Shown one piece after another: positions 17,189 to 25,620 of a stretch of DNA of 33,313 nucleotides; within the stretch, counting starts at the first letter, position 1, and each line of letters starts with the position of its first letter. The notes beneath the pieces are model-generated. The model saw only the letters and a program-made list of their open reading frames with translations, was not told the origin of the DNA and ran no database searches. Source of the DNA: a virus (taxonomy: Duplodnaviria; Caudoviricetes); IMG/VR virus record IMGVR_UViG_3300027785_000072, positions 1 through 33,313 of that record, one strand, 5' to 3'. A program made the translations under genes and the position numbers.

Positions 17189-17196
17189 CAAAGTTA
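17189..17196 (-). promoter_or_regulatory. -7 promoter box TAACTTTG upstream of the portal gene
   Basis: TAnnTTTG overlapping the TerL stop codon. Confidence 0.55.
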
Positions 17197-18552
17197 AGAC
17201 AATTTTTTAAACATTGATTGAACAAATATAGATAATCCACTTAAGCAGTCAGGAGCGTCGTCGTTTTTGTTCTTACCCTCCTTGCTAAATGATAGTACAT
17301 TTTGGATAAATAGCTCGCTTTGATTGTCACCATTACGTATAAAAATCATTGAATTCATTACGTGAGCACTTGCCATTATTATGCGTGTTATCTTATTTTG
17401 CGTGTTATGTACTTGTAATATTTTTGTCCGTGTTTGCGTCTGTAGTTGTCTACTGAACATTGCGCCCATACTATTCGACTCTACCCTACAATAACTTACG
17501 TTCCATTTATCCAACATCGCAGCCGTTTGAGGTATCGTTATATCGGTATTATCTCGAGTCATTAAATAGTCCACAATAAACAGCTGTTTCTTCACAATTG
17601 CGCAAATTGCAACTGACGTATAATCAGTACCTTGGTCACTAACGTCCACGTAGCCAAGACAACCCTCAATAGGGTTAGATTTCGTGATTTCGGCAAACTC
17701 CTCTTTTGATAAGAAATTAAGGTTATTAAACAACCGTCCTTTCATGTCAACGGGCTGTTGTTGGTATTCAGCTTCCCATATTTCAGGAGCTGTACGTTTC
17801 TTTTTTTCGATATATTCGGCTGTTGTTAGCACGTCCTCGCAAAATGACTCCCCTTGGTCATTCATAGCACTAACAATAATTGACTTGTCGTATATCTTTG
17901 ACTCAATATTGCGGCCTATAACGTCGTTTAAAGACCAACGTGTACCTATATCAATCCTGGCGCATCCACTCTCAAATCGTGAATCGTGTGTTGATTCCTT
18001 CCATTGATTGATTCTATCGTTCACAGTGTCACTTAGTGCATCTTCAATGCCTCGATATAAATCATCTGTTATCGCAACGTTACTTGCTCCAAACCCGATA
18101 ATAGTACCACCAACACCCGCACCAAAGTAACCTACTTGCTTACTTGTGTTAGTATTCCACCCTTGTAGATTCGATTTATCATCTGATAGGCTTACATTGG
18201 GGAATATTGAACGGTATTTGTCACTTTTCACTATTGCTCTAACGTCATAACTGAACTTTAAGAACAATGTAGCCGTGCAAGTGTTACGCATTACACTCTT
18301 AGTCGGATTTCTTCCGATTGTCCACGCACAGAATAACGAAGTGATATACGATTTACCAGCTCTTGGTGGCATTGAAACAGATAAACTTTTGATTATTTTC
18401 TCTTCAATCTCTTGAAAGGCATCCGCTATTTCTTTGAGGAACGGTCTATTTACGAAAAAAGTACGGTCATAAGCCAAACAAAACTCCCATAGTGAGCGTC
18501 TTGAAAGCTCATTTCTAAGCATTCGTTTAGCGTATTCCTTACGTTCATTCAT
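17194..18552 (-). CDS. terL: Terminase large subunit (452 aa)
   Basis: Walker A SMPPRAGKS, Walker B AITDD, GTRW, YQQQP; nuclease YVD...DY, VESN, NDDAPD. Confidence 0.95.
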   Translation of the reverse strand: MNERKEYAKRMLRNELSRRSLWEFCLAYDRTFFVNRPFLKEIADAFQEIEEKIIKSLSVSMPPRAGKSYITSLFCAWTIGRNPTKSVMRNTCTATLFLKFSYDVRAIVKSDKYRSIFPNVSLSDDKSNLQGWNTNTSKQVGYFGAGVGGTIIGFGASNVAITDDLYRGIEDALSDTVNDRINQWKESTHDSRFESGCARIDIGTRWSLNDVIGRNIESKIYDKSIIVSAMNDQGESFCEDVLTTAEYIEKKKRTAPEIWEAEYQQQPVDMKGRLFNNLNFLSKEEFAEITKSNPIEGCLGYVDVSDQGTDYTSVAICAIVKKQLFIVDYLMTRDNTDITIPQTAAMLDKWNVSYCRVESNSMGAMFSRQLQTQTRTKILQVHNTQNKITRIIMASAHVMNSMIFIRNGDNQSELFIQNVLSFSKEGKNKNDDAPDCLSGLSIFVQSMFKKLS

Positions 18553-18889
18553 CTTCCTTTAATAAGTCCCTTAATTCGTCCGTTGTAAGGTTTGAGAGGT
18601 CTATTTCAGTGTTCGTTTGCTCGATTTGTTGAACGGGTGCGCCATATCCTGAGTCCATCAATGCTTTGTATGCGTTAGTGTCGCCATCCCTTGCCTTTTT
18701 TATTTGCGCTAAAGTCATCAAATCTTCTTGACTTAACGTTTCATTGTCGCCAGTCAATGGATTCTTTAAGTTTTGATTTACCTCTAACCATTTCCGAGCG
18801 ATTGTGCTTCGATTCTTTGCGCCTTTTGGTCTTCCGTTTGGGTTTCCGCTTTCGCCTTGCTTAAATGGTATTAAATCTTCTTTACTCAT
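18545..18889 (-). CDS. terS: Terminase small subunit, DUF5681-type (114 aa)
   Basis: FKQGESGNPNGRPKG motif, directly upstream of TerL; start moved to ATG 18889. Confidence 0.85.
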   Translation of the reverse strand: MSKEDLIPFKQGESGNPNGRPKGAKNRSTIARKWLEVNQNLKNPLTGDNETLSQEDLMTLAQIKKARDGDTNAYKALMDSGYGAPVQQIEQTNTEIDLSNLTTDELRDLLKEDE

Positions 18890-18894
18890 GATAT

Positions 18895-18927
18895 TTTTGT
18901 TCTGTATTTGTTCTGTATTTGTTCTGT
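18895..18927. repeat. Three copies of an 11-bp tandem repeat (ATTTGTTCTGT)
   Basis: 18895-18905 (first base T), 18906-18916, 18917-18927. Confidence 0.9.
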
Positions 18928-18936
18928 TTTTTTTAT

Positions 18937-18944
18937 TATATTTG
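18937..18944 (+). promoter_or_regulatory. -7 promoter box TATATTTG for the tRNA-like RNA
   Basis: TAnnTTTG 10 nt upstream of the tRNA-like 5' end; no well-spaced -33 box found. Confidence 0.65.
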
Positions 18945-18954
18945 TCAAACAAAT

Positions 18955-19025
18955 GCGATATTAGTGTAATGGTTACATACTTAACATTCCAGTTGAGAGT
19001 TGGAGTTCGAATCTACCATATCGCT
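18955..19025 (+). tRNA. Non-canonical tRNA-Gly(TCC)-like RNA
   Basis: Acceptor GCGATAT/ATATCGC plus U73; T8A9; D-arm GTGT-AATGGTT-ACAT; anticodon arm CTTAAC-ATTCCA-GTTGAG; T-arm GGAG-TTCGAAT-CT(A)CC; no encoded CCA (CAA follows). Confidence 0.85.
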
Positions 19026-19718
19026 CAAATTAATAACCTTACGTTCTTGTAGGGTTATTTTTTTTCCTTTATACATACCTGCTCCCATTTCATCTATTTT
19101 GCTAAATGGTAATATAGGAACGGTTAATTTGCTATTCCTATCAATTAAATATATATATCTAATTTGGAATCCGTTTAACTTTTTACCTCCATTATCTTTT
19201 ATCCAATTTGTTCCGCTTTTACCGTTACTTTCTTTTGTTCTATGCGCTGAACTAGTTAAACTACAAACTACTTCGCCATTTGGCATTTGATACGTGCTTG
19301 TGTTTTTATTAACGCCTATTAATTGAAACCCACTTGCTCTATAAATTGTCCCATCACCGCACAAATTACCGTCTGAAAAACTTAATATCCATTTTATTTG
19401 GGGCGCATTTTTTTTAATTAATTTTATTGATATTGCTATACATCTACTTTCTGAATATTTAGGTAAATAGTCATCAAAAGCCATTCTATTCAATTCTATT
19501 ACTTCATTCCATTTCGTGTTTTCAACATAATGAATAACTTTTGATTTTACCATTGGGCTTCCATAACTCATCACACCATGTAACTCATTATCTAAAAAAC
19601 AACCAAAATGTAAATTACTATTTGGAACTACTTTACCGCTATAATGATGTTTCTTTACAAACTCATTAGCAATTTTTGAAGGTATTACTTTAACAATTAT
19701 TTCCTTTGCCCTGCCCAT
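18981..19718 (-). CDS. Mom-family (GNAT-like) DNA adenine hypermodification enzyme (245 aa)
   Basis: FVKKHHYS, ELNRMAF, ESRCI, ILSFSD, DGTIYRASGF, QIRYIYLI motifs typical of Mom-like proteins. Confidence 0.85.
   Translation of the reverse strand: MGRAKEIIVKVIPSKIANEFVKKHHYSGKVVPNSNLHFGCFLDNELHGVMSYGSPMVKSKVIHYVENTKWNEVIELNRMAFDDYLPKYSESRCIAISIKLIKKNAPQIKWILSFSDGNLCGDGTIYRASGFQLIGVNKNTSTYQMPNGEVVCSLTSSAHRTKESNGKSGTNWIKDNGGKKLNGFQIRYIYLIDRNSKLTVPILPFSKIDEMGAGMYKGKKITLQERKVINLSDMVDSNSNSQLEC
19032..19065 (+). terminator. Intrinsic terminator closing the tRNA-like transcript
   Basis: AATAACCTTAC-GTTCTT-GTAGGGTTATT with a T run to 19065. Confidence 0.8.
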
Positions 19719-20296
19719 TGCATAATAATTAAATAAAGAGCGTTTCCGTTCGTGTTTTCATTTCCCATTGTTTCAGTATATTTATACTCTTCGGTTGTTT
19801 TAATGTCTGCCATTGCGTTTTTAATCTGTTCCGCTTGTTCATCTGCAAGGGTGAAAGTCATTTGTTGAAACGGCGCTTTGTCTCCATCAGGTAAACTAAA
19901 TTCAGTTCCTAATTCATCAGCGTTTAAATCAAAGCCGGGCAAATCCAATCCCCAATCCTCTAATTTTTCGGTGTCCCATTCATTCGCTAATTCACTCCAA
20001 TCCCATTCTCCAAACCCTACGTTATCTTTAACTATGAATTCGTGTTTTTGTTCCTCTGTCAGGTCGTTTGCTTTGATTATAAACACTTCCTTTAATCCAG
20101 CCTCAATACACGCTTTAAAACGCATATTTCCGCCTAAAATGATATTGTTTTCATCAACTACAATCGGTCTTATTTCCAACATTTGCGGAAAATCTTTTAT
20201 TGATTGAACCAATTTGACAAACTTATCATTTTTGATAATTCTGGGGTTTGATTTATTCGGTATTACTTCCTTAATGGTTACTTTTTGTGTTATCAT
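19697..20296 (-). CDS. ParB/Srx N-terminal domain protein (199 aa)
   Basis: PNKSNPRII, RPIVVDENNIILGGNMRFKA, IVKDNVGFGEWD. Confidence 0.85.
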   Translation of the reverse strand: MITQKVTIKEVIPNKSNPRIIKNDKFVKLVQSIKDFPQMLEIRPIVVDENNIILGGNMRFKACIEAGLKEVFIIKANDLTEEQKHEFIVKDNVGFGEWDWSELANEWDTEKLEDWGLDLPGFDLNADELGTEFSLPDGDKAPFQQMTFTLADEQAEQIKNAMADIKTTEEYKYTETMGNENTNGNALYLIIMQWAGQRK

Positions 20297-20457
20297 TTTT
20301 TCGTGTTTCTGTAAGGTACTATTTTATTCAATAAATCCTTTCGTTTTCCGCAGTTGCACGTCTTAATAACGCTCTTTACTACTTTGGCTATTCCTGTTGC
20401 TTCGAGGATGTTCTCTACTGAGTCACCTAGCCCGATTGGATTCTTATTCAACCCCAT
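20293..20457 (-). CDS. Small protein with a GLGD...TGI...CxC motif (54 aa)
   Basis: Not in the track. MGLNKNPIGLGDSVENILEATGIAKVV...TCNCGKRKDLLN; ATGA-coupled to the ParB gene. Confidence 0.75.
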   Translation of the reverse strand: MGLNKNPIGLGDSVENILEATGIAKVVKSVIKTCNCGKRKDLLNKIVPYRNTKK

Positions 20458-20679
20458 TTAGATGAATAATCTTATTGTCCAATAAATGCCTAAAATCACT
20501 CCTAATGACAATACACGTGTGAATGAAGATGCCATCTCTTTTTGACCTTCAAACCACGTTGTTATTTTTGATTGTTGTAACCACGGCAAAAAGAATAACA
20601 TTGCTCTATCAATAAAGAAGATTATTCCAAATATTGGTAGCAAGGTTATTCCTAACGCTACTTTTAGTTTTTTGTTCAT
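20458..20679 (-). CDS. Small membrane protein (73 aa, two hydrophobic segments)
   Basis: Start moved to ATG 20679, downstream of the leader hairpin. Confidence 0.7.
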   Translation of the reverse strand: MNKKLKVALGITLLPIFGIIFFIDRAMLFFLPWLQQSKITTWFEGQKEMASSFTRVLSLGVILGIYWTIRLFI

Positions 20680-20698
20680 AATTGTTCGTTTTAATGTT

Positions 20699-20739
20699 AA
20701 AAATACGCACAAAGGTTATATCTCTACTTCCCTTGTGCG
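20699..20739 (-). terminator. Terminator/attenuator-like hairpin
   Basis: CGCACAAGGG-14 nt-CCTTTGTGCG then TATTTTT. Confidence 0.55.
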
Positions 20740-20765
20740 CTACAAAACCTAAACACTAGTCAATG

Positions 20766-20773
20766 CAAAGGTA
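20766..20773 (-). promoter_or_regulatory. -7 promoter box TACCTTTG
   Basis: TAnnTTTG in the intergenic gap ahead of the ParB/Mom/packaging genes. Confidence 0.55.
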
Positions 20774-21037
20774 TTAATTTTCGTTTGAATAACGTAAAAA
20801 ATAAATATAGTGCAAATGTCCGATTGATTTAGTGGTTAATATTCCTATTTCGTGTTTTCGTAGTTCCTGTTTCAATTTCCAAATGTTAATGCTTTTTTGC
20901 ACGCATATTGTTGGTATAGCATCCGTTTTAAAGCCTATCGAGTAACCTATCAAGGCTTCTTTATACTTTACGGTTATTATCGTTGCTAGCAACTCTTCGG
21001 TCGGTATTCCATTTAGATATTTAGCGCATTTTTCCAC
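20774..21037 (-). CDS. Hypothetical protein (87 aa)
   Basis: GTG start after an A-rich tract. Confidence 0.55.
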   Translation of the reverse strand: MEKCAKYLNGIPTEELLATIITVKYKEALIGYSIGFKTDAIPTICVQKSINIWKLKQELRKHEIGILTTKSIGHLHYIYFLRYSNEN

Positions 21038-21066
21038 GTGTTTTTTGCGAAAGATAATGAATAAAT

Positions 21067-21120
21067 TGATAACAAAGTATAAGCGGCATTGAAAAACGCC
21101 CGCCTATACGATAGTTATGG
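21067..21120. mobile_element. attC-like recombination hairpin (54 bp)
   Basis: TGATAAC-AAA-GTATAAGCGGC...GCCCGCCTATAC-GATA-GTTATGG: AAC/GTT cores, unpaired spacer, one extrahelical base. Confidence 0.65.
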
Positions 21121-21211
21121 TAAAGTGGCTGATTTGAGTTATCTGCGAGGTAATTAATACACCAACAGCTTATCTTATCTAAATAGTTCCGAGAAACTAA
21201 CGCCACCTATC

Positions 21212-21603
21212 CCATAACAGCAAGTAAAAGAAATTAAGGAGTTTCGTTCTTCGATTCAAGTTCTTTTCTACAAAAAGTTAAAGCACGTTCTAATACTTCA
21301 AGGCTTTCAATATTTGCAAATAACAATCTAACATAATCTTTTGATTCAGTTTCTAAATCTAAATCTTGACCTATATTGTTTTTATCACTTAATATTGAAA
21401 GGTCTATGAATGGAAATTTGTGTTTTTCTTCTAATGTATTTTTATCAGAAAAAGTAATTCTACCTGATTTCACACCCACAATACCAAATCCAAATTCGTA
21501 AACTTTCAAGTATTTTATTATTTTAACTTTTTGTGTTTCTTTTTTCATCTTTCGTTATTTTTTAATTAGTTCCTTAACTTCTTTTACTTGCCTACCGTTA
21601 TAA
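21212..21603. mobile_element. Long attC-like element whose two arms enclose a gene
   Basis: Left arm CCATAAC-AG-CAAGTAAAAGAAATTAAGGA (21212-21240); right arm TCCTTAACTTCTTTTACTTG-CCTACC-GTTATAA (21571-21603); 19/20 inverted match. Confidence 0.65.
21234..21548 (-). CDS. Hypothetical cargo protein inside the attC-like arms (104 aa)
   Basis: Very AT-rich; its stop codon lies in the left repeat arm. Confidence 0.75.
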   Translation of the reverse strand: MKKETQKVKIIKYLKVYEFGFGIVGVKSGRITFSDKNTLEEKHKFPFIDLSILSDKNNIGQDLDLETESKDYVRLLFANIESLEVLERALTFCRKELESKNETP

Positions 21604-24939: not shown

Positions 24940-25620
24940 TTAAAATAGTTTTTGTTGTATTCCTATGTTTCTTTTTATACCCCATTGTGAAGCCATTGCT
25001 TCTGCTATTCCTGGAAACGTTTTACTTCTTAATGTTCGTCTTTCTTCTTTATTATAGCCGTGTTTCATAAAAGCGTCAGCATACCACTGCGGCTGTTTTT
25101 TTATTTTACCCGTTTTTTTATCAGTCCATTCGAAAAATTCTCCTTTACCAACTATTTTTGTAGGTTGTAAGTGAGGTAAATTCTTTAACCATAAACAAGT
25201 ACTTTTTTGAGCTTCATCTCCAAACATCCAAGGTTGTATTATTTGGTCTGGTTCTCTAATAAAAGAACTAATTACTGATACAGGATTTTCAATACAAATT
25301 CGGTCAATATCTACATCCATCAATTTATGAACAAATTCCAAAGCATCCATTTGATTGTTCCATCTTTCTTCATTTCTGCTACCATCTTTATTATACATCC
25401 ATCCAGCACCACTAACTGATAAAAAAGTGCAAGGAGGATGAAATATTCCAACATCAAATCTTTCTTCACGTTCTAAAACATCAAATATAGATTCTTGAAA
25501 ATGCCATTCAGGATGACCACCACTGCAAGGAAGTAAATCACAACTAAATGCTTCAATACCTATTTTTCTAAACGCTTTTGTAACAGCCTGACTTTCTTCA
25601 CATCCTATAATAACTCTCAT
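24940..25620 (-). CDS. Short C5 cytosine DNA methyltransferase-like protein (226 aa)
   Basis: GCEESQAV, SCDLLP, FHPPC (catalytic PC), IENPV, RSKTFPGIAEAMASQW. Confidence 0.82.
   Translation of the reverse strand: MRVIIGCEESQAVTKAFRKIGIEAFSCDLLPCSGGHPEWHFQESIFDVLEREERFDVGIFHPPCTFLSVSGAGWMYNKDGSRNEERWNNQMDALEFVHKLMDVDIDRICIENPVSVISSFIREPDQIIQPWMFGDEAQKSTCLWLKNLPHLQPTKIVGKGEFFEWTDKKTGKIKKQPQWYADAFMKHGYNKEERRTLRSKTFPGIAEAMASQWGIKRNIGIQQKLF

Follow-up and report, generated by a model that had tools for sequence, protein, structure and literature searches.

The virus record analysed here (33.3 kb, taken as a whole and called the window) carries, at the end of a gene for a Mom-family DNA modification enzyme, the gene for a tRNA-Gly-like RNA with a bulged T-stem. 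We consider it probable, at roughly two chances in three, that this RNA is a reserved glycyl donor for the Mom modification of phage DNA adenines. Silva et al. (2026, PMC13219725) have shown that Gly-tRNAGly, the donor named in the initial annotation, supplies the glycine that Mu Mom puts on N6-dA, and this makes a dedicated, ribosome-excluded glycyl donor likely. If true, the virus encodes a tRNA that serves DNA modification and not translation. Such a tRNA would also explain how enzymes of the Mom type obtain Gly-tRNA in competition with EF-Tu, for which that paper looks to late timing.

The mom cassette and its RNA gene

The window carries HK97-type head genes, a terminase and replication genes, and profile annotation places all its annotated genes on the minus strand. 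Upstream of the terminase, parB-N and mom overlap by 22 nt at the mom start (Table 1). The RNA gene is antisense to the last 14 codons and the stop of mom, and its hairpin sits within the mom coding sequence (mom codons KKITLQERKV).

Table 1 Features of the cassette and of its immediate context in the window
Feature	Position	Strand	Basis
ParB-N protein, 199 aa	19697..20296	-	PF02195 E 4e-6
Mom-family GNAT DNA adenine aminoacyltransferase, 245 aa	18981..19718	-	PF25680 E 1e-52, phrog_1384
tRNA-Gly-like RNA gene, 71 nt	18955..19025	+	sequence reading, ARAGORN, alignment A1 pair counts
Bacteroidota sigmaA -7 box (TAnnTTTG), sequence TATATTTG, likely RNA promoter	18937..18944	+	motif position across homologues
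Hairpin and T-run, likely intrinsic terminator of the RNA	19032..19065	+	terminator scan, homologue comparison
Probable small terminase (DUF5681); context, outside the cassette	18545..18892	-	PF18932, position before TerL
TerL	17194-18552		phrog_38

The initial annotation had described a box, a cloverleaf and a hairpin with a T-run at the end of mom, and sequence reading finds all three where it had put them. The cloverleaf runs from G1 at 18955 to U73 at 19025, which is followed by CAA, CCA not being encoded. It has a 7-bp acceptor stem (G1-C72, C2-G71, G3-C70), a 4-bp D-arm, an 18-nt anticodon arm with a TCC anticodon at 18988-18990, and a T-arm (GGAG/TTCGAAT/CT-A-CC) whose bulged A lies at 19015. 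The bases of the glycyl-tRNA synthetase (GlyRS) identity set, G1-C72, C2-G71, C35, C36 and U73, are present, as is A37, whereas the 5-bp unbulged T-stem and the 7-nt anticodon loop of a canonical decoding tRNA-Gly are both absent. The RNA retains G18G19 and TTC, which we count against the donor reading. The minimum-free-energy structure is this cloverleaf, bulge included, at z -1.5 alone and z -3.4 with the hairpin; since the fold is weak by itself, the proof of an RNA structure has to be comparative.

Several other sequences in the window are recorded here as observations in their own right. A second DNA-modification gene, a methyltransferase (phrog_757), lies at 24940-25620, and GATC is rare (16, both strands counted). 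A 10-nt unit occurs three times at 18899-18929, just upstream of the small terminase start, and twice in a homologous locus (L048). The 9-mer AAACACGAA (gene strand) occurs seven times (19513, 19749, 20039, 20300, 20849, 22026 and 22468; 0.9 expected), always in one orientation and within 3 kb upstream of the terminase. The two orientations were counted 102 versus 2 times in Mom/ParB loci and 105 versus 6 times in terminase loci, Mom-less ones included, and the 9-mer is a possible directional packaging or protein-loading site.

A covarying RNA family with a bulged T-stem

Alignment A1 comprises 49 distinct copies, 54-99% identical to the window RNA, extracted with G1-C72 imposed and a CCA-like word favoured. 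Of its 1026 stem cells 99.6% are paired, a level reached in none of 500 shuffles, slid controls giving 34-54%. Two-sided changes occur in 18 of the 21 pairs, among them 32-38 and each of the four pairs that flank the bulge in the T-stem, and C2-G71, C35, C36, A37, the bulged A and U73 are each found in 49/49 copies. The 4-bp T-stem with its bulged A and the retained GlyRS identity elements, both claims of the initial annotation, are conserved across A1, and the invariant C2-G71, C35, C36 and U73 match published GlyRS determinants (PMC10464925). That annotation had also left the anticodon loop at 6 or 8 nt; because C32-G38 covaries, we prefer a 6-bp stem with a 6-nt loop to the 8-nt alternative. 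A second alignment of 25 copies, mostly of a 5-bp bulged form, is 94.3% paired with two-sided changes in 16 of 22 pairs, and in alignment A6 the window form equals the 5-bp form less one pair beside the invariant A.

We then tallied 254 distinct elements with a parser that passed 1/490 control segments and wrongly scored two loci (L198 and L211) as lacking the RNA. Since it imposes G1-C72, C2-G71 and an NCC anticodon, the tallies of those bases are circular and carry no weight here. The T-stem has 4 bp and a bulge, as in the window, in 165 elements, 5 bp and a bulge in 84, and no bulge in 5; it is therefore bulged in 249/254, the bulge being A in 243. Positions 32 and 38 are paired in 235/240 elements and the anticodon loop is canonical in 1/240; base 34 is T, A, C or G in 189, 39, 9 and 3 cases (ACC occurs 39 times), U33 is often lost, the D-arm is absent in 23/254 and the T-loop reads TGC in 61/254. 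By comparison, the host tRNA-Gly genes read by eye in four bacterial genomes were canonical in 7/7 cases.

Pairs 49-65, 50-64 and 51-63 set EF-Tu affinity (PMC3239215), and set against such published determinants the anatomy of the elements indicates that bases read by GlyRS are fixed and features read by EF-Tu and the ribosome are altered. The bulged A, which lies two pairs in from the junction with the acceptor stem, is thus a natural, covariation-defined candidate EF-Tu antideterminant. A few copies whose T-stem is near canonical count against this, among them that of Microbacterium phage Appa and that of Arthrobacter phage Shade, which has A51-U63 and no bulge.

The family also has outlying members. 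Psychrobacter phage Y8A (OQ059336.1; L155:3662-3802) carries two tandem unannotated D-armless tRNA-Gly(CCC)-like genes after mom, both with a bulged A and an encoded CCA. A single Mom-adjacent element from Methanobacterium ferruginis (L482:2097-2176) has A73, an enlarged D-loop and no bulge. A73 is the archaeal tRNAGly discriminator (PMC3990555), and the archaeal comparison is mixed, the Methanobacterium copy having A73 and a Woesearchaeota MAG copy U73. Two Bacillota copies (L488:2125-2197 and L511:1719-1791) have shrunken anticodon loops and no CC anticodon, and are either decayed or use a different identity mode.

The RNA follows Mom

Among 80 viral loci with Mom relatives (64-94%), relaxed ARAGORN called a tRNA at the mom end in 44, and the element can be seen in the raw sequences of nearly all. 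Where 120 nt or more of downstream sequence was available, the parser found it in 78/78 loci (47 sense, 31 antisense); left out were a locus cut inside mom (L056) and one with no element in its 111 nt (L077), so that the fair count is 78/79. The initial annotation had asked for conservation of the bulge, the odd loop and the co-occurrence with Mom, and all three are found, the first two in A1 within a covarying structure. In the reverse direction, a DNA pattern holding no protein information retrieved 120 viral loci of an estimated ~610, and the Mom HMM matched 77/80 of the RNA loci with 1.5-kb flanks and 37/40 of those with 0.3-kb flanks. Two of the three misses with long flanks end at contig edges and the third is a true miss (L164:1500-1580), with a typical element before a terminase, a TAnnTTTG-like context of its own after it, and no Mom within 1.5 kb; it is either an orphan copy or one whose mom lies farther away.

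As a lineage control we collected 80 loci with a TerL query (terminases 69-100% identical), 72 of them with at least 700 nt upstream. The RNA was present in 4/4 terminase relatives with Mom and in 0/68 without it (Fisher p 1e-6, not phylogenetically corrected). These loci (L276-L354) have nearly identical terminases and differ in the cargo between ParB-N and the small terminase: in the sample it was an N6/N4, C5 or D12 methylase, TET/JBP with an FkbM-type methylase, TAGT, ABC-GNAT or Mom, and some had none. DNA-modification genes are exchanged in this slot as a cassette, and the RNA comes with Mom alone.

A second, PF25680-positive Mom clade, ~16-27% identical to the window Mom, is also accompanied by the RNA. 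The parser found the element in 69/79 loci retrieved with a Psychrobacter-phage query and in 62/79 viral loci of this clade; in GTDB loci of the clade it was found in 36/80 by the parser, in 33/80 by a covariance model and in 38 by both combined, leaving 42/80 without. Titles of records with the element name Bacteroidota, Acidobacteriota, Planctomycetota, Pseudomonadota, Bacillota and others. Annotated phage records carry it in 4/17 cases (Y8A, Salinibacter phage B2_17, Shade and, antisense, Appa); the 13/17 without it include Mu, Mu-like Moms being without RNA. Overall 406/478 Mom loci have the RNA and 72 do not, these being related, partly redundant loci and not independent events. About 55 of the 72 RNA-less loci have ParB, and losses occur here and there, those in gut Bacteroidales, Bacillota and enterobacteria being prominent. 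It is with Mom that the RNA travels, and not with ParB or the phage lineage.

The window protein is a Mom-family enzyme

The window Mom scores 179 bits against PF25680 (cut-off 27.1) and matches the Mu Mom structure 8BV8 at a phmmer E of 4.5e-22. Its AlphaFold model (142-row alignment, pLDDT 88) has 8BV8 as top Foldseek match (E 3e-18), the next being a GNAT at 4e-6, so HMM, sequence and fold all bear out the family named in the initial annotation. Mu residues H58, Y59, R111, S124, D149 and Y159 correspond to H25, Y26, R78, S91, D116 and Y126, which are invariant or nearly so across the 142 rows. Mu R151, W48 and W181 are not kept, and pairwise alignment puts N118 at the position of R151, which is essential in Mu Mom (PMC13219725); an arginine after Y126 in the window's Mom clade may substitute for it. 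By analogy with Mu Mom, the window enzyme is predicted to form 6-NcmdA on dsDNA from Gly-tRNAGly.

The Mom tail after GAGMYKG varies from 9 to 50 residues among relatives, and since its length is variable, it is the RNA and not the protein that constrains the overlap of the two genes. Positions 19180-19310 (Mom residues about 136-180) are the counterpart of the HTH-like DNA-binding insertion of Mu Mom and are hypervariable and mosaic; in L048 the ParB, the tail and the RNA are almost exactly those of the window, yet the Mom insertion is different. This mosaicism likely reflects swapping of target specificity.

Expression signals and orientation

TAnnTTTG is the consensus of the Bacteroidota sigmaA (PMC9723704). 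In the AT-rich window the motif alone is at chance level (58 found, 50 expected), so it is meaningful only through its position across homologues. A strict TAnnTTTG lies no more than 60 nt upstream of 61/75 antisense elements, as against 2/75 on the opposite strand, and also near 45/179 sense copies; a sigma-70 promoter scan found nothing. The hairpin at 19032-19059 (12 pairs), with its T-run, is the sole terminator-like site in 18700-19300, and among AT-rich loci a terminator hairpin follows 51/68 antisense versus 3/121 sense elements. That antisense copies gained a box and a terminator indicates that production of the RNA is selected for in either orientation.

The antisense position given in the initial annotation holds for the window and fails as an essential trait, since 179 of the 254 distinct elements are sense by the parser, sense being the commoner orientation. 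Since the interior of Mom is mosaic, the 19 sense/antisense changes on the Mom tree are not taken to be inversions. The promoter motif, together with the hosts of prophages sharing the RNA architecture, points to a Bacteroidota host.

ParB-N as a possible partner

The C-terminal ~60 aa of ParB-N are nearly invariant in this clade; the domain belongs to no known family, and its look-alikes have no Pfam family. A role for ParB domains in coupling modification to packaging was reportedly described by Iyer et al. in 2013. When the C-terminal domain was co-folded with Mom the pair scored 0.57 against 0.01 for the best control, with runs agreeing in at least 55% of contacts and a partner pLDDT of at least 72; the co-folding mark was reached by 116/157 solved and 2/215 mismatched pairs, and at 0.60 or under by 18 solved pairs and both mismatches. 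The model thus hints, weakly, that ParB-N contacts Mom, which lends something to the partnership suggested in the initial annotation. Although 74/74 new loci found with the window ParB also contain Mom, ParB-N stands beside other cargo, and the RNA is absent, in 25 of the 68 terminase relatives that lack Mom. On the Mom tree (FastTree; Mu, with <120 nt downstream, left out) the association of ParB-N and RNA has too few independent pairs (4; p 1). ParB-N is a general occupant of the pre-terminase slot, beside many RNA-less DNA modifiers.

Proposed function and alternative explanations

In the reading that we favour, conserved signals suggest that transcription of the RNA would start at the TAnnTTTG box and stop at the hairpin. 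Host enzymes would trim it and add CCA, and host GlyRS would glycylate it through G1-C72, C2-G71, C35, C36 and U73. With a bulge at 51-63 and with 32 and 38 joined in a pair, it would stay out of translation, and Mom would move the glycyl group to N6-dA, giving 6-NcmdA and restriction resistance as shown for Mu Mom. Against the donor reading stand Mu and 72 other Mom loci, which do without the RNA, the ability of Mu Mom to work with all three E. coli tRNAGly, the absence of R151 from the window Mom, the single element with no Mom nearby (L164) and the poor charging of an engineered D-armless tRNAGly described below. The RNA is likely an accessory supply with no absolute requirement.

The main rival, which we regard as unlikely, has the uncharged RNA fill the donor site of Mom as an inhibitor or buffer, so that a toxic enzyme is held in check until late in infection; antisense copies might in addition dampen mom mRNA. 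The promoter and terminator of the antisense copies would permit expression apart from the late operon. Mu Mom is selective for the tRNAGly body, taking all three E. coli tRNAGly isoacceptors and rejecting Gly-tRNAAla (PMC13219725). Moreover L. plantarum GlyRS, which touches the T-stem with its beta subunit, hardly charges an engineered D-armless tRNAGly (PMC10464925), and the bulged and D-armless forms may therefore be poor substrates. A mimic of this kind does not fit the invariance of C35 and C36, which are GlyRS determinants, when Mom probably reads no more of the tRNA than its acceptor end (PMC13219725), nor the finding that most copies are sense and co-transcribed.

Destruction of tRNAs is an established part of phage defence. 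The RNA could thus be a glycyl donor deformed mainly against host anticodon nucleases, tRNA-targeting toxins or deacylases, and not against EF-Tu, feeding Mom when host tRNAs are destroyed. The remodelling of the anticodon loop in 239/240 elements agrees with this, but the one departure that never varies is the bulge in the T-stem, where EF-Tu binds, and we judge this reading quite unlikely. If the element were an RNase P/Z punctuation signal or an antisense regulator, keeping expression of mom apart from that of the terminase with no role for aminoacylation, this would explain why it always sits at the mom/terminase junction, often over the last mom codons. Such a role is improbable, because the element is absent when other modifiers fill the slot, both orientations work, and glycine identity would be unnecessary.

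A role in translation, for instance as a Gly supplement or +1 frameshift suppressor, is very improbable. The 32-38 span is 8 nt in 29/49 A1 copies and the Appa copy is near canonical, as such a role would have it; set against these are the invariant bulge, the paired 32-38, the frequent loss of U33, the free base 34, the D-armless forms and the strict tie to Mom. Furthermore +1 shifting would not fuse parB and mom, since mom is in the -1 frame of parB. That the RNA is a decaying tRNA or integration-site relic is scarcely tenable: ARAGORN, run as the initial annotation had proposed, does return an unassignable tRNA-??? at 18955-19026, and Rfam cmscan of 17500-21500 gave no family match below E 1 and no tRNA match at E<=5, but covariation of all four stems at 54-99% identity contradicts decay, the differences from host tRNAGly are systematic, and 18500-21300 has no repeat copy.

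The donor reading can be widened. We put it at slightly better than even that there is a distinct class of cofactor RNAs, derived from tRNA-Gly, bulged and hidden from EF-Tu, in mobile elements across many bacterial phyla, which together with Mom and a ParB-N partner would make up a three-part DNA-hypermodification machine at the packaging genes. If true, such an RNA is a virus-encoded, translation-orthogonal aminoacyl carrier for DNA chemistry, and some phage 'pseudo-tRNAs' may be enzyme cofactors.

Comparison with known systems

The window enzyme shares with Mu Mom (PF25680, 8BV8) the family, the fold and most catalytic residues, and a Gly-tRNAGly-dependent N6-adenine modification is predicted for it. 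Whereas Mu Mom stands alone and uses host tRNAGly, mom here overlaps parB-N before the terminase and has its own deviant tRNA gene. A term search of the main text of PMC13219725 returned no phage-encoded donor, ParB or non-proteinogenic tRNA.

Staphylococci settle the same competition for Gly-tRNA with the non-proteogenic tRNAGly species NP1-NP3, which feed Fem transferases, bind EF-Tu weakly and have an anticodon stem of 6 bp (PMC7826273). Like the RNA described here, they combine Gly identity, a 6-bp anticodon stem and an altered EF-Tu site; they are donors for a GNAT-fold tRNA-dependent transferase, as the RNA here would be. Their extra 32-38 pair is C-G in the window. Their A49-U65, U50-A64 and A51-U63 pairs and TGC/TGT T-loop are replaced in the window by G-C, G-C, the bulge and TTC, although 61 of the 254 elements share TGC. 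The staphylococcal genes are chromosomal and serve the cell wall, and their escape from EF-Tu, shown experimentally, comes from weak pairs (A51-U63) in a regular 5-bp stem; in contrast, here the gene is a phage gene, the target would be DNA, and EF-Tu would be evaded through a bulged A.

A precedent for the gene arrangement comes from the Dehalococcoides ssrA islands, where a 76-bp tRNA-Gly-like locus lies inside a mom homologue next to parB (McMurdie et al. 2011, PMC3146451), and where parB, mom and a conserved pseudo-tRNA-Gly (anticodon DCC) likewise form one module. It differs in belonging to a genomic island and in having the RNA within the first 150 bp of mom, and the locus is presented there without a function or a link to Mom chemistry. 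Our literature searches, which covered openly available papers and the main text of PMC13219725, returned no proposal of a phage-encoded donor tRNA for Mom or of a bulged T-stem. Mom chemistry and non-proteogenic tRNAGly were known already; what is new is their union in phages and the architecture of the RNA.
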